Shown here: piece by piece, positions 8,872-19,920 of the stretch | How the letters are laid out: each line of letters opens with the position of its first letter | How positions within the stretch are numbered: the stretch's first letter is position 1 | Virus record (IMG/VR): IMGVR_UViG_3300045999_005873 | DNA length: 20,000 nucleotides | Reading direction: 5' to 3' (one strand) | From: an uncultured virus (IMG/VR IMGVR_UViG_3300045999_005873) | Lineage: Duplodnaviria > Heunggongvirae > Uroviricota > Caudoviricetes | Translations under genes and position numbers: made by a program | The notes under the pieces: generated by a model | The model's database searches: none | The model's input: the letters and a program-made list of their open reading frames with translations, nothing else | Told to the model about the DNA's origin: nothing

Positions 8872-9063
8872 CTATCGCCTCTTTTTTGGTACTTGCTTCG
8901 TCGTTACTTCGGCTCGCTCGACGGCCACTGGAACGGCCTCGGCCGTCTCCACCTCTTCGATCAGCCCACGGCGGATGAGGATGTCGCACATCCCACCAGC
9001 CCAGTCCTCGAAGACTTGGCCTTTTTCGTAGCAGTCAAAGTTTTGGAGGACGCGAATCTTCAA
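8872..9063 (-). CDS. Small hypothetical head-associated protein (~63 aa)
   Basis: Probable TTG start overlapping the upstream TGA (TTGA). (M)KIRVLQNFDCYEKGQVFED...LIRRGLIEEV with a basic tail resembles the short proteins often found between capsid and connector genes. Confidence 0.6.
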   Translation of the reverse strand: MKIRVLQNFDCYEKGQVFEDWAGGMCDILIRRGLIEEVETAEAVPVAVERAEVTTKQVPKKRR

Positions 9064-9788
9064 TGAACCTGCCCCCAGGCGTTCTCTGGTGCCTTCTGGC
9101 CGCCGTTCCAATACTCAGTCGTGTGCTGCTGCACCTTGCCGCCCTCGGCCGTCCGAGAGGGCCATGTGACCATCAGTTCGGCGTGCCCGACGCTGACGTG
9201 CGTTGCCAGCCCGAGCTTGTTGCCGCAGGCGGCCCAGCCCTTCCAGAAGCCGATGTCTTCGTCAGTGTGCCCGCCCGTCCACTCGCCATCATCATTCGCC
9301 CTGGCGAGGAACCAGGGCTTCTTCATCTTCTTGAGGCCAGCCGTCCGCAGGAACGTCAGTCCGAAGTGAGCCGTCTCGACCGGCTGCACCACCTTCTGAA
9401 AGAAGTCGCCGTCCACCGTTGTCTTCTCGTCTGGACTGTTCCCCGGCAGGGCGAACATCACCGCATTCGCTTCCCGCTTGGTCTGGAGAGGAGCGATGGC
9501 GTCGTAGCCCGAGTGCAGGAGCAGGGCCAGGAGCGCCTCGACAGTCTTCGAGTTGAAGACCGTGTCGTAGTCGATGGTCAGGATCACGTCGTGGGTATCC
9601 ACGACAGTCTCCATCGCTCGCTGAAGGCACTGGCCCCAGAAAGCACCCGTCACCTTGATGGGACTGATGCCATGCGGGGCCAGTGCCGACGAGACGCAGA
9701 AGAAATTGTCGGTAAATCCAAGTCGCGGGGTGCTCATCACCGCCGCGACTTTGATTTCCGCTTCGACGTTACCGACTCGGATCAGCAT
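9060..9788 (-). CDS. Glycosyltransferase-like protein (GT-A/GT2-like fold)
   Basis: DXD motif after a beta strand (DVILTIDYD), HFGLTFLR, KPWF, DEDIGFW (ED motif) and a late VGH. AAGGAG SD upstream. Confidence 0.65.
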   Translation of the reverse strand: MLIRVGNVEAEIKVAAVMSTPRLGFTDNFFCVSSALAPHGISPIKVTGAFWGQCLQRAMETVVDTHDVILTIDYDTVFNSKTVEALLALLLHSGYDAIAPLQTKREANAVMFALPGNSPDEKTTVDGDFFQKVVQPVETAHFGLTFLRTAGLKKMKKPWFLARANDDGEWTGGHTDEDIGFWKGWAACGNKLGLATHVSVGHAELMVTWPSRTAEGGKVQQHTTEYWNGGQKAPENAWGQVH

Positions 9789-9864: not shown

Positions 9865-10287
9865 TCAGCCCTTGACCCAGCCGATGCAGCCAGCTTCAGT
9901 AGCAGTCGTCGGGGCATCGCCACGAGACAGCCGAGCCGTCACCACCGTGTTCACGCTGACCGCGGGGGTCGCCGTGACCTTGAGGTAACGCTTCTTCGCC
10001 TTCGTGTCGACATCCAGCTTCACCACCGCGACGGCCGCCGTGTCGGACACGACGGGGATCGTGAAGTCGGTGCCGCCCAAGAGGCCGGTCACGTTCGAGT
10101 AGGACGAGTTGTCGTCCGACTCTTCAACCTTCAGGACGCTGGCAAACACCGTCGAGGCGTTGCTGGCCCGCATCACGGTCACGCTCGCGTGGTCATAGCC
10201 GAGCGTGTCGATCGTCAGGGTCACGGCACTCGAGCCGACCGAAGCCGGGACGGAGGCCACAACCTTTTCATTCTGGGCGTGGATCAT
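9865..10287 (-). CDS. Putative capsid decoration/cement protein (140 aa)
   Basis: Immediately after the major capsid gene. Beta-rich, with IDTLGYD, LKVEESDD and KKRYLKV motifs typical of small jelly-roll-like capsid accessory proteins. Confidence 0.55.
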   Translation of the reverse strand: MIHAQNEKVVASVPASVGSSAVTLTIDTLGYDHASVTVMRASNASTVFASVLKVEESDDNSSYSNVTGLLGGTDFTIPVVSDTAAVAVVKLDVDTKAKKRYLKVTATPAVSVNTVVTARLSRGDAPTTATEAGCIGWVKG

Positions 10288-10327: not shown

Positions 10328-11680
10328 TCAGGACGCCGCGGTCTTGAGGGCCACCACCGGGCCGGCGGTCGTGTTGTCGCCCAGCGAGTGGTGGTTAATG
10401 TCGAAGCGAAGCGTTCCCTGGAGGAGCAACTGGTCGGTCGTGGCGTACACTTGGTCGTACATCTTGACCGAGAAGTCACGGCGACGAGCGTAGATGCTCG
10501 ACAGGCCGAGGTTCGCGAACAGCACCTTCACCTTGCCAGCGTCGGCACCGAGCGTGCCGTCCATGACGTGGACGAGGTTCACCGGGTAGCCGAGGAACTG
10601 CTCGTTCACGCCGCCACCGACCTGCTCGACGGTGTTGCCACCAGCCGCGTAGCGGAGGCGGGCCATCGAGGCAGCGAAACCGGCCGGCGAGATGTAGAAG
10701 GCTGCACCCTGGCGGGCGTACAGCGGCATCCGGCCGATCAGCTTGATGAAGTCGGTCACGGTCAGGGTCTCGAAGCCCGTCGCACCCGTGCCGGCAGTCA
10801 GCACGCCAGCGGTGTGAGTGCCGTCGTTGATCTTCGGCACCACGCCGTGGATTCCGCCGAAGCTGGAGGTGCCGTCACCCAACCAACCGCACATATCCTG
10901 CTTGAGCGACAGCGAGGTGCTGAACTCCACTGCCACAGCATCAGCAATCGAAACCAGAGCGTCCTCTACGATTTCGCTCGACATCCGAGTGCCAACCGCC
11001 AGCTTTTTGGCGATAAGCTGCACATTGGAATAAGTGGGCTCGCTCTCGTTTACCGCCGTCCCTTCGCCCACGAAGTACGCTGCGGTGCCCGTAACCCGCT
11101 TGGGGATCACGAGGGTGTCGCGGGTCATCGTGACCTTCTCGACGTTGCTCGCGGCGAAGGTGCCGTAGTTTTCGACGAGACGAATCACGCGGGCCGCAAA
11201 CTCTTCGGGCACTAGAGCGCCACCCGACGAGTTGCTGCTCTCGCCCAGGGCACGGCTCTCGACGCCGTGATCCTTGCACCACCGGAGGTCTTCGGCGTTC
11301 TTGAAGATATGGGCTCGGAGCCACCGACCGCAGCGGTACGCGCTCTCGACGGCCTCGGGGCCGTCGTTGAATGCCCGCAGGCTGGTGTGGTGGGGCTGGA
11401 TCGAACGAATCTCGACCTTCTTGTCCTCGGCCTTGGCGGCCACTTCGGCAACCGGGGCAGGGGCGGGGGCGGCCTTCTCGACCACCGCACGCAGCTCGGC
11501 TTCCTTGGCGGCGATCCGCTCCTCGAAGTCGAGGGAAGTCTTCAGGTCGTCGGCCTGGGTGCCGAGCGAGATGAGTTCCTTGGTCTGCTCGGCCGAGCGA
11601 TCCTCGATACCGGACAGTTCGGTCATCCGAGCGGCGACAGCCGCGGCACGTTCCTGAAGACGCTTGAGATTCGATGCCAT
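10328..11680 (-). CDS. Major capsid protein, HK97 fold with N-terminal coiled-coil delta domain (450 aa)
   Basis: Start MASNLKRLQERAAA at 11680 with an AGGAG SD. Motifs SSGGALVPEEF, AYFVGEG, KKLAVGTRMSSEIVED, GDGT, FLGYPV and RFD. Confidence 0.93.
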   Translation of the reverse strand: MASNLKRLQERAAAVAARMTELSGIEDRSAEQTKELISLGTQADDLKTSLDFEERIAAKEAELRAVVEKAAPAPAPVAEVAAKAEDKKVEIRSIQPHHTSLRAFNDGPEAVESAYRCGRWLRAHIFKNAEDLRWCKDHGVESRALGESSNSSGGALVPEEFAARVIRLVENYGTFAASNVEKVTMTRDTLVIPKRVTGTAAYFVGEGTAVNESEPTYSNVQLIAKKLAVGTRMSSEIVEDALVSIADAVAVEFSTSLSLKQDMCGWLGDGTSSFGGIHGVVPKINDGTHTAGVLTAGTGATGFETLTVTDFIKLIGRMPLYARQGAAFYISPAGFAASMARLRYAAGGNTVEQVGGGVNEQFLGYPVNLVHVMDGTLGADAGKVKVLFANLGLSSIYARRRDFSVKMYDQVYATTDQLLLQGTLRFDINHHSLGDNTTAGPVVALKTAAS

Positions 11681-11831
11681 GTTTGGCCTGCTCCTGTGAT
11701 TGAGCCGGCCTAACGCACGATGCGGCGGCCGGCGGGTGATCCCGCTAGCGCGCCGCGTGCTTGAATCCTCAAGACGCTCGCACTGCTCTTCACGACATCC
11801 GTCGTGAAGCAATGTGTCTACTTGTAGACTA
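11681..11831 (-). promoter_or_regulatory. Highly structured 151-nt capsid leader with GGA-loop hairpins
   Basis: On the mRNA: GUCUAC-aa-GUAGAC (11816-11829), CUUCACGAC-ggau-GUCGUGAAG (11788-11809), CUUGA-ggau-UCAAG (11760-11773), GCGGG-auca-CCCGC (11732-11745), GCCGGCC...GGCCGGC (11704-11733), then CACAGGAG SD. Confidence 0.65.
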
Positions 11832-13499
11832 TCAAGCCTTCGGAAGACCGTGCAACTGAGTCCGAAGGATTGTGGCCTTCAGAGCCGCCAGCTTCACGTC
11901 GATGTCCAACTGTTCCTTGGCCGCCCGCATGTCCTCGGCGACCTTCTCGTCGACAGGTTCCGGCTTCTTCTCTTCGCTCATACGCTCCTCGGGGATGATC
12001 CACAGTTTGCACACGGCATCGGCAGCGATCTCGCCCTGCACGATGTAGCACCTGCCTTCCTCGCCCTCGAAGAAGACGCAGTTGCCGCACTTCACGCCGT
12101 CCTTGGCGAAGGGGTTTTCGGTCATGTAGTGAGCGTCGTTCTGCGAGAACGCGCCGAATTCCTCGGCGATGCCCTCATACGACTCGGCCAGGGCGAGGTT
12201 CGCGGGCGAGAGCACGGATTCGTACTCTTCCTCGATCTCCTCGCCTTCGACGATGTCTCGCTTTCCAGCGGCACGCTCCATCTGTGAGACCTTGGCCTCA
12301 CTCCACCGCCACGCCGGGTCGCCGCCCCAGAGCATCCAGGCGGTATAGCCGGGGGTCTCAGCGCCTTTCGCGCTCCAGCCGGCCTTCTTGTCGACCTTGT
12401 GACGCCGAAACCACGCCCGCATCTCGCGAACGTGCTCGGGCGTGAGTTCGTCGCGGTCGGCGATCTTGCCGGCACGCGCCACCGTCTCGGGCTTGAGCCC
12501 GTCGCCCGATCGGCCTTCCTCGTGGAGGGCCAATCCTCGCTTCGCGGCGGCTGCCATGCCCGCGGTGGGCTTCAGATTCACGTCGGAGGCGGCCCGTTCC
12601 TCGGCAGGAGCGTCGGAAACAGGGATTTCAGTGGCAGAGTCCACCGACGGGGCTGCTTCCGGCTGCGCGGAAGCAGCACGCCGATCCACCCACTTCTGCC
12701 CTGCATCTCCGCCGGCCAGTTGCCACTCGATCCAGGCCGGCGTGCCCGACCAGCCCGTCACTTTCGCCGCCAAGCAGCGTTCGTAGACTCCCGAGAGGTA
12801 CGAAACCTCCTCGACGGAGACGATTTCGCGGTTTGCGACACGTTCGGCGATGCACAGGAGGCGAGAATCGATGTTTTCTGCCTTCTGGGCGAGCTTCAGA
12901 CCGCGTTTCGCCGCGTTCGCCATCGTTTGGATGGGCCGATGGCTCTCGCCGAGGGCCATTTCGATGGCTCGACGGCTCACCACCACGCTGGACGAGTCAT
13001 ATGCAGGGCGAACCACTGGCCCAACGTCCTCGAGCAGCCCGATCGCACGCACTTCTCGCTTCCGAATGCCACGAGTATTGTCCGTAGACCACGAATCGCC
13101 ATTATCCCGACGGATTGCGAAGGCGAAACTTGACCCCACGACTGTCCTATCCTTCACCCATTCGATCACGTCGCGGCCGATGGACGTGTTTTCGTTCGGC
13201 GTGATCTCGTAACGAAGACCATAGGGGTCTTTCGTGAGCTTCATCGACCCGTTTCCGGTGCGGCCGAGGAGCAGATTGCGGTCGTGATTGAACACGCCGA
13301 TGACATCGGGGTTCTCGGCCAGCACTTCGTCGAACGCATTCGGGTGAATCGTCTCGACGAAGCCGCCCAGGTTGCGGCTCTCAGCGTTGAAGACGGCGGC
13401 GTAGCCCGAAATCACAGGCTTCTTCTCGCCGTTTCCCATGTCTCGGTACTCAATCGTCGCGTCCGAGACCGTCGTGCGCCGTTCAATTTCATTGCTCAT
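11832..13499 (-). CDS. Prohead maturation protease (HK97 family) with long multi-domain C-terminal extension
   Basis: The N-terminal ~180 aa contain ISGYAAVFN, GGFVETI, FNHDRNLLLGRT, GSSFAF and EDVGPVVRPAY. These are followed by two copies of an ~90-aa domain, a 4-Cys domain and a helical tail. Confidence 0.9.
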   Translation of the reverse strand: MSNEIERRTTVSDATIEYRDMGNGEKKPVISGYAAVFNAESRNLGGFVETIHPNAFDEVLAENPDVIGVFNHDRNLLLGRTGNGSMKLTKDPYGLRYEITPNENTSIGRDVIEWVKDRTVVGSSFAFAIRRDNGDSWSTDNTRGIRKREVRAIGLLEDVGPVVRPAYDSSSVVVSRRAIEMALGESHRPIQTMANAAKRGLKLAQKAENIDSRLLCIAERVANREIVSVEEVSYLSGVYERCLAAKVTGWSGTPAWIEWQLAGGDAGQKWVDRRAASAQPEAAPSVDSATEIPVSDAPAEERAASDVNLKPTAGMAAAAKRGLALHEEGRSGDGLKPETVARAGKIADRDELTPEHVREMRAWFRRHKVDKKAGWSAKGAETPGYTAWMLWGGDPAWRWSEAKVSQMERAAGKRDIVEGEEIEEEYESVLSPANLALAESYEGIAEEFGAFSQNDAHYMTENPFAKDGVKCGNCVFFEGEEGRCYIVQGEIAADAVCKLWIIPEERMSEEKKPEPVDEKVAEDMRAAKEQLDIDVKLAALKATILRTQLHGLPKA

Positions 13500-13969
13500 G
13501 CCGTCACCTGATTCGCGAGGTAGTTGTCCACACCGATCTGTTCGATCACACGCTGTTTTGCTTCGATCGCGGCCACCGCTTCTTCGCTGCCTTCGAGCAA
13601 CCGGGTGAAGATGACGGCGGAAATCTCGTCGCCGACGGCACGGCAGGCCGTCACGTTGGCTCGCTCGGCCTCCGCAGCGGCGGTTTCAAGTGCCAAGTTG
13701 GCCGCGAGGATGCCCTCGAAGTCGTGGCGAGGCCAGTCGGGCTGGTCGTGATCGTAGGCCGGCTGCTCGTCGTAGTATTCGAGCCTCGCCTGCACCTTGT
13801 GCAGGTGGCGGCGCTCCTCTTCGACCTCGCCGCGGGCGGCGTCGGCCAGCTTCCCGTAACCCCATCGATCGAAGTGCTCGGCCTGCGACTGATACGTCTC
13901 AATCGCGGTCATGTGCAGCCGAACGGAGGCTTGCAGGGCGTCGATCACGCCTTCAGGTGCTTGCGGCAT
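13496..13969 (-). CDS. Bacterioferritin-like protein with degenerate ferroxidase and heme sites
   Basis: 157 aa. Aligns essentially colinearly with E. coli Bfr as I recall it: AIxxY, WG..KL, EEERRH, RL, NLALE, GDEIS and the C-terminal IEQIGVDNYLANQ E-helix. Confidence 0.82.
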   Translation of the reverse strand: MPQAPEGVIDALQASVRLHMTAIETYQSQAEHFDRWGYGKLADAARGEVEEERRHLHKVQARLEYYDEQPAYDHDQPDWPRHDFEGILAANLALETAAAEAERANVTACRAVGDEISAVIFTRLLEGSEEAVAAIEAKQRVIEQIGVDNYLANQVTA

Positions 13970-15597: not shown

Positions 15598-18177
15598 CTA
15601 GAGCACCATGAGAGTTGGTTCGTCGGTGTTGCCGTGGTTCTCGCTAGAGGAGATACCGAGGGCCATGATCAGAGAGACCGCGCCGTCGATGCGGGCCGTC
15701 GAGTGTGAGTGTTTTTTAGTAGGCTTTATGTTCCCGGCATCGTCGATCTTGACCTGAACATTCGACATCTGCCACGCCAGAACAGGGTTGCCGGCGTGTC
15801 GCAAGCGCTTAGAAACGCACAGAGTTTCAAGCAGCTTAGAAGGCGCGCTCATGCTGGCAAAACCTTGTCCAAACGGCTTAACGTCGATTCCCTCCGCTAC
15901 GAGTTGCGTCGTCAGATGCACCGCATTCCAGCGGTCGATTGCAATACCGCGAACCGCATTCTTCTCGCAAAACGAGAGAATGTAGTCTCGGACAGCGTCG
16001 TAATCCGTTATGTCGCCATCTGTTAGTGTAACAAAACCCGCGTCAGCCCAGGCTTGATACGGCACCCGGTCTTCCTTTGAACGCTTGTGCGCGTTCTCCT
16101 CGGGGATGAAGAAGTGGGCGTGAACGTCATACGTTCCATCGGCGTCAGGCCAGATCGCCACGAACGCCGTCGTGTCGAATGTGCTGGCGAGGTCAACGCC
16201 GCACCAGCATGGCCGCCCTGCCGTCGGCCGCAGCGGCTCGTTGTTGGCGTCCCAGGCACCGTGCCTGATCCACTTTGTTTCGGATTTTTGCCACTGGTCT
16301 AAGTGCAAAGTCCTGAAGACGACTTCGTCGGCCGGCGAGTCCTTTGCTTTCTGGGCGAATTGCTGGAAATACTCGGGTTTCAGCGTGATTCCGTAGTTCG
16401 GATTCGCCTTCTTCCACGTCTCCTCGATGAACGGATCGTCCTCGGGATCGGCGGCGTAGATGCACGGCAGGAACGAGTCGTCCTTCAGCACGCCATCGCG
16501 AATCTTCACTGCCCGCTGCCAGTCCTTGTAACACGGGCCGTCCATGTCGGTGCCGGCCGTCGTGATGTAGATGGTGAGCGGCTGACTCCTGGCACCAGTA
16601 CCCGTTTCTAATACGTCGACCAGCTCGCGATCGGGGAAGACGTGATATTCGTCGACCAAGACGCAGCTTGGGTTGTAGCCGTGCTTGGTTCCGGCCTCGC
16701 TCGAGATACAGAGCATCGTCGAGTTCTTCTCAGGGAACACGATGCTGTTTCGGTATATCTTGCACCGCTTCGCCAATGACGGGCAGCTTTCGACGAACTG
16801 CTTCGCCGCGGTATGGAGCAACGCCGCCTGGGAGCGGTCGCCGGCCGCGACGATCACCTCGGCCCCCTCGTCATCGCAGCAGAGCATGAACAATCCAACC
16901 GCTGCGGAAATCGCGGAGTTGTGCGTTGGGATGAGCGACCGGCCGGCAAGAAACATCCCGTCAGGAGATTCGACCTGAATGCAGCGGACGGGGACGGATG
17001 CGACTGGATCGCATGACACAATCTGCCGAGTTCGCGATCGTGCCGCCATTTTCGGTGGCGACTTCACCCTTTCCTGCTTTCGCGAAAGGCGAAACACCTT
17101 CATGGGTGCAAGTGGCGTGAACACGACTCGATACTTCGGCCCGACTGCAACGCCGCCAAGCTTGGCGACGGATTCCTTGAACGTCGCCTTCAGCCCCAAA
17201 GAAATAGCCAGCTCGGTGAATCCCTCTGCAAGCCGACGATTCGTGTTGCAGAACTCGCATTCGCCCGCCTTACTGATGGAGCCGTCTGTGTCCATTAGCC
17301 CCTGAAGCAGGGAGAGCCTCTGCGTAACACTCGCCAACAGATAGATTTCTGGGATGTGCTTGTTACCGAGAAGGCCCATTGCACGAAGCCTGCTTTGAAC
17401 AGAAGTTCGCATTTCTGCCGACAAAACGCGCGATTTTCTCCCGCCAAGGGTCACCGAGTAGTTGCCTTTGGCTTGATACACGGACACGGCAACGCCGGCT
17501 GCCTCCATGTTGACAACCGCTTCGCCAATGTCGTCCGATCCGACCGAAACTCGAGCGCATCGCGAGCTGCCATCGCCTAGCCAGACGCCGAGTATGTAGG
17601 GATCGACTGGAAGCTCATGCGAGAATGGGAACTGCACTGGCGCAGCGACCGTCACGCTGTGGTTTCTGTCTCGCCGCGGCCCTGCATGGCACGTCTCGGC
17701 GATCTCTGCTGTCGTGCGAATTCGCCACCCAGGCACGCCATCCCCGCATGGCCCGCGACCATCCCCCGGCCTGTCGATCCTCGCATTCGTGTACCAGAGG
17801 TGCTCGGCGTCGGCGACGATTGTTTCGCCCTGGCTGAAGCTCACGCCGTAGCACGGTCTGCCTCGCATCACCTCAGTGGCGGCTATGACCCTTGTCGGGC
17901 AGCCGTTGGGGTGAAATACCTCATCGCCGACATTCAGATCGCCCATCGTCGACCAGCCTGTGGTCGTCAGCACAGGCGTATCCAGGGCCAGCGCTTTTCC
18001 ATTCTTGCGGGGCAACGCAAGCAAACTCGTCCGATACTGCCGCAGGCCGTCAGCCTTCTTCGTGTTGAACAGCTTGTCGAGGTACTCGTCCTGCCAGGGT
18101 TGCAGGACAAACGGCTGCCCCGCAAAGTCACCTCGACTGTGCCGCAGTAAGCCGATGAAATCGCGGATATCAACCAC
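15598..18177 (-). CDS. terL: Terminase large subunit, intein-containing (859-aa precursor, ~500 aa spliced)
   Basis: LQPWQ Q-motif, Walker A PRKNGK|S, Walker B VLVDEYH, ITTAG, nuclease GVDLAST.D, IDRWNA and RIDGAVSLIMA. Confidence 0.96.
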   Translation of the reverse strand: MVDIRDFIGLLRHSRGDFAGQPFVLQPWQDEYLDKLFNTKKADGLRQYRTSLLALPRKNGKALALDTPVLTTTGWSTMGDLNVGDEVFHPNGCPTRVIAATEVMRGRPCYGVSFSQGETIVADAEHLWYTNARIDRPGDGRGPCGDGVPGWRIRTTAEIAETCHAGPRRDRNHSVTVAAPVQFPFSHELPVDPYILGVWLGDGSSRCARVSVGSDDIGEAVVNMEAAGVAVSVYQAKGNYSVTLGGRKSRVLSAEMRTSVQSRLRAMGLLGNKHIPEIYLLASVTQRLSLLQGLMDTDGSISKAGECEFCNTNRRLAEGFTELAISLGLKATFKESVAKLGGVAVGPKYRVVFTPLAPMKVFRLSRKQERVKSPPKMAARSRTRQIVSCDPVASVPVRCIQVESPDGMFLAGRSLIPTHNSAISAAVGLFMLCCDDEGAEVIVAAGDRSQAALLHTAAKQFVESCPSLAKRCKIYRNSIVFPEKNSTMLCISSEAGTKHGYNPSCVLVDEYHVFPDRELVDVLETGTGARSQPLTIYITTAGTDMDGPCYKDWQRAVKIRDGVLKDDSFLPCIYAADPEDDPFIEETWKKANPNYGITLKPEYFQQFAQKAKDSPADEVVFRTLHLDQWQKSETKWIRHGAWDANNEPLRPTAGRPCWCGVDLASTFDTTAFVAIWPDADGTYDVHAHFFIPEENAHKRSKEDRVPYQAWADAGFVTLTDGDITDYDAVRDYILSFCEKNAVRGIAIDRWNAVHLTTQLVAEGIDVKPFGQGFASMSAPSKLLETLCVSKRLRHAGNPVLAWQMSNVQVKIDDAGNIKPTKKHSHSTARIDGAVSLIMALGISSSENHGNTDEPTLMVL
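16918..17994 (-). mobile_element. Class 3 intein (359 aa) with LAGLIDADG homing endonuclease
   Basis: Begins ALALDTPVLTTTGW (Ala1). Block B is ADAEHLW, block F is VRCIQV, and it ends IPTHN followed by Ser+1. LAGLIDADG motifs are YILGVWLGDGS and LLQGLMDTDGS. Removing it restores PRKNGKSAISA. Confidence 0.93.
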
Positions 18178-18652
18178 GCTTGGCTAGTAGAGCGTCCATT
18201 GGGTCTTGCACGACCTTCTCGGCGTGATAGCCCATTCGGGTGCGATCAGCGGGCGTCAGGCCGAGGACAGTCTCAAGCTGTCGGAGTTGCTCGTGACAGT
18301 GATTGCTCTGCGACTGCCACTTGTTCGGCCTGCTGAAGCGGAGGGAGCCGTCGGGGGCCGATACCTCGACCCAGCCGGAGTCCAACTTGGCAAGTTGCAT
18401 CTCAGCATCTCGCCAGCGATCCCAGATGATCGAGTACCGCGAGATCACTTCGACATCGCTCTCGGCCAGCGTGCCCATCCTCTGCGTGTATCCGCAGACG
18501 AGGTTGAACATCTCCTTGGCTGCCGGCCGCATCCATGCCGGGGGCACGGGCAGCGAAGACAGGGGGGTGCCTAACTCCTCGCGGTAGTTGGCTTCCTTCG
18601 ACCCACGCAGGGCCAGGATGTGCTTCGGCGTTGGTGCTGGGCCTTTTGACAT
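18170..18652 (-). CDS. terS: Terminase small subunit (P27 family), 160 aa
   Basis: Likely start MSKGPAPTPKHILALRGS at 18652. Motifs PPAWMRPAAKEMF and LGLTPADRTRM. Overlaps the terL start. Confidence 0.9.
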   Translation of the reverse strand: MSKGPAPTPKHILALRGSKEANYREELGTPLSSLPVPPAWMRPAAKEMFNLVCGYTQRMGTLAESDVEVISRYSIIWDRWRDAEMQLAKLDSGWVEVSAPDGSLRFSRPNKWQSQSNHCHEQLRQLETVLGLTPADRTRMGYHAEKVVQDPMDALLAKRG

Positions 18653-18657
18653 GGAAG

Positions 18658-18689
18658 ATAGTATTACTGAGTAGCCTTGCGGCGTGCAA
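18658..18689 (-). promoter_or_regulatory. Possible sigma70-like promoter for a leaderless terS transcript
   Basis: The minus strand reads TTGCAC-17 nt-TAATACTAT-cttcc-ATG. It is an AT-rich patch in GC-rich DNA, and terS has no SD. Confidence 0.35.
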
Positions 18690-19920
18690 AGGAGTCTGCA
18701 TCCTCGACTCCTCGCTGCCAGTTGCACTGCCAGCAAGCAGCTTGACAGTTGTCAAGGACGTGCCCAGGCGACGAGGGGCCGAAAGACAGTGGCACGATGT
18801 GGTCGATTGTTGGCGAACGCGGGTGGGGGGTTCGCGTGCCCACGATAGTCGTGAATGACCCAAGAAGCTTTACTCCGCAGAGCTGGCACTTCCACTTGCC
18901 TCGGATCATCACCGCCTCCTTGCAGACTTTCGTGTAAGGCGCGCCGTACTTCTTGCATCGCTGGCGAAAAGTGGAGGCGTTGCCGTGCCTTCTCCTGCTG
19001 GCTCGCTTGTTCTTTCGCCTATTTTCTCTGCACCTTGTCGCGGCACATGGATCGCAGAGCCACCGGCCTTTCTTTAGCTCGCCGCCACAGTCTGGGCACT
19101 GCTTGTGTTTTTTCATCGACGCCCTCTGCGCAGCATCGCGGCAGCAGCCGCAGACGACATGAGCAGGAGACGCAGCGTTTCGCTGCGATACGAACGATCT
19201 TCCGCACGGTTGGCACACAGAAGTCAGCGGCCACTGGTCGTCGCCCCACGACAGGAACCACGTTGCAAGCTTGTTCGCGACCTCAAGCGGTCGCTCCGCG
19301 CACTTCTTCTTGAGCCGGCGAGCCTCGAAGGCACAGTCCCGAGAGCAGTATTTTGACTGAGATGAGTAGCCGCCGGCAGCGAACCTTTTTCTTCGGAACC
19401 CGACGCCACAGTTTAGGCATTCGTATAGGCGAGCCCTGGAAAAGTTCCTACAGGAACGCGAGCAGAACATACTCGACTCCCGACTCGCCTTGAATGATTT
19501 GCCGCAATACTCGCAATTCTTCTCAGTGCCGCATCTAAACGACCACCGGCACTGATCGCTGCAATACTTCTTCCCTCGCAGGCCGCAGAAATTCTTGCCG
19601 CACTTGACGCAACTACACTGAACGCCTGCCCTGCGAATCGCTTCAGCATTCTTTACGCATTCGTTCGAGCAGTATTTCCGAGTAGTCCCTCTCCCTGGCG
19701 TATGATGAACAATCGCCCCGCACGTCGCGCAGACGGCGTCATCGGCCTTGCTCTTGCGATCGCCCAGGCGGCACTTTTCGCATCGCCTGCGGACGCGCCC
19801 CGGCACGCCGACCTTCTGAGGGACGTTGCATCCGCATCCTGCGCATGCGTGCGTGCCAGACTTGACCATGCGAGCGGTCGGCACGTCGCACAGACTACCA
19901 GATAAGACTGCGAATCGCAA
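18664..19920 (-). CDS. HNH endonuclease with N-terminal array of Cys4 zinc-finger repeats (start uncertain; ATG 19869 is an alternative)
   Basis: C-terminal WKCQLCG...PTIDHIVPLS...HVLDNCQAACWQCN. Repeated CxxCG...(K/M)(Y/F)CSxxC units precede it. Confidence 0.85.
   Translation of the reverse strand: MRFAVLSGSLCDVPTARMVKSGTHACAGCGCNVPQKVGVPGRVRRRCEKCRLGDRKSKADDAVCATCGAIVHHTPGRGTTRKYCSNECVKNAEAIRRAGVQCSCVKCGKNFCGLRGKKYCSDQCRWSFRCGTEKNCEYCGKSFKASRESSMFCSRSCRNFSRARLYECLNCGVGFRRKRFAAGGYSSQSKYCSRDCAFEARRLKKKCAERPLEVANKLATWFLSWGDDQWPLTSVCQPCGRSFVSQRNAASPAHVVCGCCRDAAQRASMKKHKQCPDCGGELKKGRWLCDPCAATRCRENRRKNKRASRRRHGNASTFRQRCKKYGAPYTKVCKEAVMIRGKWKCQLCGVKLLGSFTTIVGTRTPHPRSPTIDHIVPLSFGPSSPGHVLDNCQAACWQCNWQRGVEDADSFARRKATQ

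Follow-up and report, generated by a model that had tools for sequence, protein, structure and literature searches.

A gene of the ferritin superfamily adjoining the gene of an HK97-fold shell is a trait of the encapsulin systems, whose ferritin-like cargoes include EncFtn, IMEF and EncB/C. Encapsulin cargo proteins carry a terminal targeting peptide, and EncFtn is a decamer of two-helix subunits. Genes of this superfamily carried by viruses have so far been described as loose metabolic helpers. Phage Dps-like and Mn-catalase genes were read as oxidative-stress helpers (PMC8008677, PMC6669764), a virus-encoded bfr was read as an auxiliary metabolic gene (AMG; PMC10904782), and bfr is listed in a Nitrosospira prophage (bioRxiv 10.64898/2026.05.02.722434). 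We analysed a stretch of 20,000 nucleotides from an uncultured virus of the Caudoviricetes (IMG/VR record IMGVR_UViG_3300045999_005873), hereafter the window, in which a bacterioferritin-like (Bfr) gene lies inside the head operon, between the portal and the prohead protease genes. This locus resembles the encapsulin loci in the adjoining HK97-fold shell gene and in the common theme of iron, but the window protein is a full Bfr-type subunit without extension, the shell is a DNA-packaging capsid, and the gene is dispensable. With the viral auxiliary genes it shares being virus-carried, optional and under purifying selection. Those are Dps or canonical bfr genes, described as stand-alone metabolic genes, whereas the window gene encodes a remodelled Bfr fixed between portal and protease, with overlapping codons.

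The ferritin gene, as we call it below, encodes 157 amino acids (aa) from an ATG start and occupies positions 13496..13969 of the minus strand in the list of open reading frames (ORFs). Its start overlaps by 17 nt (13953..13969) the stop of the portal gene (PF04860, 13953..15596, minus strand; Phage_portal, E 4.3e-89), and its stop overlaps the start of the protease gene in an ATGA (13496..13499), which reads tcat on the plus strand. The protease gene (11832..13499, minus strand) encodes a 555-aa HK97-type prohead serine protease (Peptidase_S78, E 1.7e-36; S78 domain at aa 20-180), and is followed by the gene of a major capsid protein of the HK97 fold, whose N-terminal region is long, at about 190 aa (10328..11812, minus strand; Phage_capsid, E 2e-26). 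The two overlaps claimed by the initial annotation were exact, both in the ORF coordinates and on reading the strand, and membership of a tightly packed, conserved portal-protease-capsid operon was borne out for this phage lineage.

Assignment of the protein to the Bfr fold, also part of the initial annotation, was confirmed in three ways, with matches well outside what chance would give. The Pfam family Ferritin (PF00210) matched residues 9-140 with 50.5 bits (E 2.7e-13), above its gathering cut-off of 24.5. All 48 matches of the PDB sequence search were bacterioferritins or Bfr-like ferritins, the best being 5zur_A (E 3.5e-13). Finally, the AlphaFold2 (AF2) model made from 18 family members had a mean predicted local distance difference test (pLDDT) of 94.2, with helices at residues 8-36, 39-65, 84-111, 115-145 and 147-152, and Foldseek aligned it to solved Bfr chains with TM-scores of 0.92-0.95 and root mean square deviations of 1.1-1.8 A. 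The layout is that of a Bfr subunit, a four-helix bundle followed by a short E helix, with H19, E52, H55, E95, E102 and E129 as putative metal residues. The NCBIfam bacterioferritin model TIGR00754 aligned end to end, over residues 7-155 of 157, with 65.9 bits, and its equivalog cut-off of 125.55 was not reached. It is thus settled that the window protein is a Bfr-type subunit, and neither a Dps nor an encapsulated two-helix ferritin. Compared to described bacterioferritins (TIGR00754, PF00210; PDB 5zur, 5d8s, 4am2, 1bcf) it has the same length, the same four-helix bundle and E helix, and it keeps Tyr26, Trp36-Gly37, Glu52, His55, Glu95 and the C-terminal IG-x-DNYL turn; it differs in belonging to a family that is mainly carried by phages.

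Searches were also made in described phages and in cells. The protein matched no PHROGs family at E<=0.01, tblastn against 50,697 GenBank phage records gave no match at E<=1e-3, and the closest portals of cultured phages were less than 40% identical to the window portal. Two ferritin loci were found in GTDB species genomes under strict search patterns, which says little on absence from cells. No longer or fused form was found among 5,591 candidates, and no protein above 264 aa among the 150 best representatives. In BFVD, three entries named 'Prohead protease' (A0A6J7XDU5, A0A6J7WIS1 and A0A6J7WPK9) and long Dps proteins from uncultured Caudovirales aligned with the ferritin model at query-normalised TM-scores (TMq) of 0.61-0.71; they may represent fusions of a ferritin-like domain with a head protease.

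The residues expected at the metal centre were then compared with those of canonical bacterioferritins, whose di-iron ligands we take to be Glu18, Glu51, His54, Glu94, Glu127 and His130, and whose haem ligand we take to be Met52, in Bfr numbering. This mapping of columns was tested by an alignment with a canonical cellular Bfr (L121) and 139 full-length representatives, 33 best-scoring and 106 lower-scoring, from a scan of 1.84 billion proteins. L121 has E, E, H, E, E and H at the six di-iron columns, as a control should, and the window ferritin has H19, E52, H55, E95, S128 and A131, so that 3 of the 6 canonical ligands are replaced. The haem-ligand methionine is missing as well, its column being occupied by R53. 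In the family as a whole, His replaces Glu18, Ser replaces Glu127, Ala, Ser or Gly replaces His130, and a new invariant Glu102 is present. Among the best representatives all 33 had His19, 32 had Glu102, and none had Met53 or His131; among the lower-scoring ones, the canonical EEHEEH set was found in 63 of 106, and Met53 in 56 of 106.

The rebuilt site is strongly conserved. In 119 distinct close homologues, the near- or fully invariant residues were H19, Y26, H32, RWGY35-38, E51, E52, H55, RLE62-64, D67, WPRHD79-83, E102, GD113-114, GSE127-129 and E136, among which WPRHD is a family-specific motif in a surface loop. H19, E52, H55, E102, S128 and E129 were likewise near- or fully invariant in 18 diverse homologues (alignment A3), which had 37 invariant columns with members down to 49% identity. 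The ratio of non-synonymous to synonymous substitution rates (dN/dS) against seven relatives was 0.14-0.30 for the ferritin gene, compared to 0.00-0.25 for portal, protease and capsid. From these alignments and ratios, we concluded that the ferritin is a distinct, remodelled branch of the bacterioferritin family, under purifying selection. Conservation with canonical Bfr is highest in the QIG(L/V)DNYL turn and the E helix, which in Bfr form the four-fold contacts of the 24-mer cage. As the whole fold, this turn and the E helix are all kept, the branch probably still forms a cage.

We next considered how constant the position of the gene is. Ferritin relatives of 50-96% identity were encoded by 40 IMG/VR viral contigs, 36 of which have the gene immediately flanked by a portal and a protease like those of the window. 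A second scan, with the C-terminal region of the protease as bait, added 80 loci. Over both scans, 94 loci displayed the junction between portal end and protease start, corresponding to 59 distinct junction sequences, of which 47 had the ferritin and 12 did not; this carrier fraction is biased upward, because the first set of loci was selected by the ferritin itself. The synteny survey suggested by the initial annotation therefore gave a conserved arrangement, in 47 of 59 distinct junctions. Portals of ferritin carriers ranged from 55% to 95% identity to that of the window, and the ferritin frame was intact at every locus examined. Contigs from three further lake-water runs spanned the whole stretch with an intact ferritin, and no joint across the ferritin gene was found in contigs from four lake runs. 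In the literature, supplements not covered, neither a Bfr between portal and protease nor such a rebuilt site was described.

The gene can nevertheless be lost. Aligned with L102, the phage L103 lacks the ferritin through a clean gap of 438 bp, flanked by DNA of 97% identity on one side and 95% on the other (L103:3735-3800 versus L102:3301-3775). In L103 the protease reading frame is preceded by the first 6 codons of the ferritin, joined to it in frame; the ATG of the protease itself is changed to ACG, and the coupling to the portal stop is retained. No PF00210 match was found anywhere in the L103 record (55.9 kb, 99% complete by CheckV). Similarly, in L080 and in the whole sister clade, with portals 47-55% identical, the portal is followed by the protease within 7-30 nt, without ferritin. 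The ferritin is thus absent from some members of the phage lineage, contrary to what is expected of a core head gene. An extra ORF of about 500 aa was noticed in the ferritin-less sister clade, between protease and capsid (L088:4881-6407, plus strand, and at the same place in L107-L119); it is rich in coiled coils, has a HExxH-type motif, and belongs to no Pfam or PHROG family.

Allele replacement was also observed. Two groups of ferritin alleles, 50-55% identical, could be distinguished, type A with E95 and E115, and type B with D95 and S or A115. Type B was found at the same site in L030, L065, L067, L068 and L071-L073. In these phages the head genes for portal, protease and capsid share 85-94% identity with the window's, against only 53-55% for the ferritin allele (D95, S115). 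In the tree, type B formed a supported clade of 19 rows (99/99) that includes copies from another phage lineage. We concluded that type B at the fixed site is a cassette replacement.

In this other lineage (L032-L035, L146-L148), the ferritin follows Prim-Pol and UvrD-like helicase genes and precedes a DNA methylase or HNH gene. A Dps-like gene of a Lactobacillus phage is likewise reported to lie near replication genes. The 75.6-kb record G002 of the same other lineage has its ferritin 45 kb from the capsid gene, and contains neither a PF04860 portal nor a match to the HiPIP-like tail of the protease described below. A metagenome scan with divergent members (alignment A5) gave 27 loci, 37-53% identical to the scan query, some of them possibly from assemblies already represented among the IMG/VR contigs. 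They comprised 13 window-like head modules, 3 replication contexts and 6 short or unannotated contigs, together with L124, downstream of a GpA-type large terminase, L142, beside an integrase, and L130-L132, in which no phage hallmark was seen. The neighbours in L130-L132 are insertion sequence (rve), SnoaL-like, GFO/IDH/MocA oxidoreductase, leucine-rich repeat (LRR) and glycosyltransferase genes. All 20 of the metagenome loci checked for the signature had His19 and Ser128, and lacked His131 and Met53. The copies in L130-L132 have the full remodelled signature, WPRHD included. If they are cellular, as their neighbouring genes suggest, the phage gene may derive from them, and they may hint at the host.

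Scattering of homologues over other loci, which the initial annotation had counted as evidence against its proposal, was therefore found in part: some copies occur in replication, integrase and non-phage contexts. The gene shows presence/absence polymorphism, allele swapping, other genome contexts and relatives in non-phage contexts, as auxiliary or moron genes do. Taken together, the deletion in L103, the ferritin-less sister clade, the swapped alleles and the copies in other contexts indicate that the ferritin is no required building block and needs no co-adapted partner. We concluded that it is accessory, dispensable and mobile between genome contexts, and not a required part of the head.

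The protease next to the ferritin has a 370-aa C-terminal extension beyond its S78 domain, in which a HiPIP-like motif of four cysteines was recognised (aa 471-500; 12000..12089, minus strand). Behind it come IPEE, also a conserved motif, then a linker rich in acidic residues and a helix at the C-terminus. The only Pfam match of the tail was HiPIP (PF01355), at best with 16.5 bits versus a cut-off of 22, and with E<=1 in 7 of 11 members. When a profile of the tail was compared with the PDB, the HiPIP 3h31 came best (E 0.0064) with all four cysteines aligned, followed by PioC (6xyv, 0.35) and 1hpi (0.5). The AF2 model of the 140 C-terminal aa had a pLDDT of 45, too poor for a fold search, and the scores of 0.75-0.77 given by ESM Atlas on the HiPIP-like part are leads only. 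Compared to described HiPIPs (PF01355; PDB 3h31, PioC 6xyv), the window protease shares the spacing of the four cysteines and flanking residues; it differs in that the domain is below threshold in Pfam and embedded in a 555-aa prohead protease, its fold and cluster being predicted only. By its sequence, the tail holds a HiPIP-like domain that probably binds metal, as a putative iron-sulphur (Fe-S) domain. No HiPIP-like domain on a prohead protease was described in the literature, again with supplements not covered. In another part of the protease, aa ~195-420 (12240-12920, minus strand), two copies of a segment containing A-A-K-R-G-L were seen; one part of the protease middle matches phrog_2859, and no Pfam family was found there at E<=10.

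The four cysteines were invariant in alignment A1, and were in frame in 31 of 33 proteases adjacent to a ferritin; the exceptions were L017, without the motif, and L012, in which the ORF is interrupted. As the motif was also present in all 12 junctions without ferritin, the HiPIP-like domain is ancestral in these proteases, and the ferritin was added later in one sub-lineage. A mutual dependence of ferritin and HiPIP-like domain was considered and rejected: L017 has the ferritin only, the 12 junctions have the domain only, and G002 has a ferritin and no match to the domain.

What could such a protein do for the phage? The reading that we favour, with moderate confidence, is an accessory cage protein, expressed late and serving to handle metal or to limit oxidative stress. 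In this lake-phage lineage the gene entered the site between portal and prohead protease as a cassette, and its product would be made together with the head proteins through the overlapping start and stop codons. Late in infection, it would act on iron, or on another metal, inside the host cell by binding or oxidising it, so that free iron and oxidative damage would be buffered during capsid building and DNA packaging; conceivably, the protease could profit as well, its HiPIP-like and probably Fe-S domain needing iron. The conserved site, the coupling and the selection indicate a functional protein, produced along with those of the head, and the lack of a targeting extension and of fused forms, together with dispensability and mobility, favours the accessory role. 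Cage assembly, metal binding, timing and physiological role are all inferred here. Three observations weigh against this reading. In 47 of the 59 distinct junctions the gene has one fixed, tightly coupled place, which suggests selection for production along with the head proteins, something that a generic metabolic helper does not obviously need. The BFVD 'Prohead protease' entries, and several of the long 'Dps' proteins of uncultured phages, have a ferritin-like region, matched at weak E of 5e-3 to 5e-2, and may mean that ferritin-like folds are physically tied to head proteases elsewhere. Finally, with half of the canonical ferroxidase ligands missing, the site could, to judge from the residues left, bind another metal, or none.

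The first two of these observations, the BFVD entries as the best lead, count in favour of the proposal of the initial annotation, that the protein is internal cargo of the prohead or virion: a ferritin cage or dimer enclosed in the HK97-fold shell, as a counterpart of the encapsulin systems, perhaps together with the Fe-S domain of the protease. Since the protease is of the HK97 type, its HiPIP-like domain, placed upstream of the conserved C-terminal helix, would be expected to reach the prohead interior. Two other points for cargo are that the gene belongs to the head operon, where in most relatives its codons overlap those of its neighbours at stop and start, and that the WPRHD loop at the surface is invariant. 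A further one is a ferritin-like protein, gp217, which mass spectrometry is reported to have found in a preparation of a Vi01-like phage (PMC10892097). We nevertheless consider this proposal unlikely, and it gained no positive support from our survey. The ferritin has no N- or C-terminal targeting extension; what is added to the Bfr length amounts to 0-2 C-terminal residues and, in a few members, an N-terminal insert of 7 aa, even if an internal signal is possible. It is cleanly deleted in the near-identical phage L103 with the protease re-coupled, and a sister clade that has the same head genes (portal, protease, capsid) lacks it. Moreover, alleles only 53-55% identical were swapped without a matching change in the head proteins, and the same ferritin family is found far from head genes in another phage, and among genes that are not phage-like. 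A bolder combination would make of the head operon an assembly line for iron handling. The protease would bring a HiPIP-type Fe-S domain into the prohead, and the co-made, rebuilt Bfr would feed or guard its iron, or be enclosed itself. The DNA-packaging capsid would then be transiently encapsulin-like, with a redox-active metal cargo, and the site, with two histidines and carboxylates and without haem, would be a new ferritin metal centre. We regard this combination as quite unlikely.

Alternatively, the protein may have kept the Bfr fold and given up iron, to become a chaperone, scaffold aid or regulator for portal and protease, its metal site being reused structurally. Loss of 3 of the 6 di-iron ligands and of the haem ligand, tight coupling to both genes and the family-specific invariant surface residues agree with such a helper in head assembly. 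It is made improbable by the invariance of H19, E52, H55, E102 and E129, as expected of a working metal site, and by a ferritin that is dispensable and that occurs, in replication modules and non-phage contexts, without a portal or protease partner. Equally improbable is a mobile moron whose benefit lies outside virion production, such as iron withholding or redox manipulation for competition or counter-defence, the head operon being then merely a late-expressed site that tolerates insertions. Cassette-like replacement of alleles, movement between phage lineages and contexts, and presence/absence polymorphism are what such an element would show; but neither the neighbours nor the family matches pointed to defence or anti-defence (PADLOC not searched), and the insertion site is the same across portal identities of 55% to 95%, so that we give this explanation little credit. 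Lastly, the missing catalytic and haem ligands could be the mark of a captured host gene in functionless decay. This is hardly credible, being already contradicted by the selection data: dN/dS is like that of the neighbouring essential genes, the 37 invariant columns persist over members down to 49% identity, the frame is intact at every examined locus, and intact copies were recovered in three other lake runs. The invariant His and Glu residues and the low dN/dS point to a site that was rebuilt and selected, rather than to decay.

Whichever role applies, a distinct and strongly conserved offshoot of Bfr is tied, through overlapping codons, into the capsid operon that a widespread lineage of lake phages carries. 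If the protein stores or oxidises iron, phages would manage iron during capsid building, and if it is enclosed, phage capsids and encapsulins would be linked in function too, beyond their structural link. Experiments can draw on ready-made controls, namely the variant with the natural deletion and the two alleles that were swapped, and the rebuilt site offers a natural case for testing how much alteration a ferritin centre allows.

Some other features of the operon were recorded. Upstream of the portal, on the minus strand, are the genes of the large terminase (TerL; 15598..18177), which carries an intein-like LAGLIDADG/Hom_end insert, and of the small terminase (18170..18736). The LAGLIDADG_3/Hom_end insert lies at aa ~275-339, between the protein start and the ATPase domain, and the best TerL match covers only residues ~398-859 in most related loci, so the insert may be polymorphic. 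Further upstream, a cysteine-rich ORF of 418 aa (18664-19920, minus strand), with many CxxC pairs and a C-terminal HNH domain, overlaps the annotated start of the small terminase. Past the capsid gene, connector, head-completion and tail-completion genes continue the packed structural operon on the minus strand. Downstream of the capsid gene, the ORFs 9060-9788 (242 aa) and 9865-10287 (140 aa), both on the minus strand, are kept in nearly all related loci, and the sole match of the 140-aa ORF is phrog_5707.

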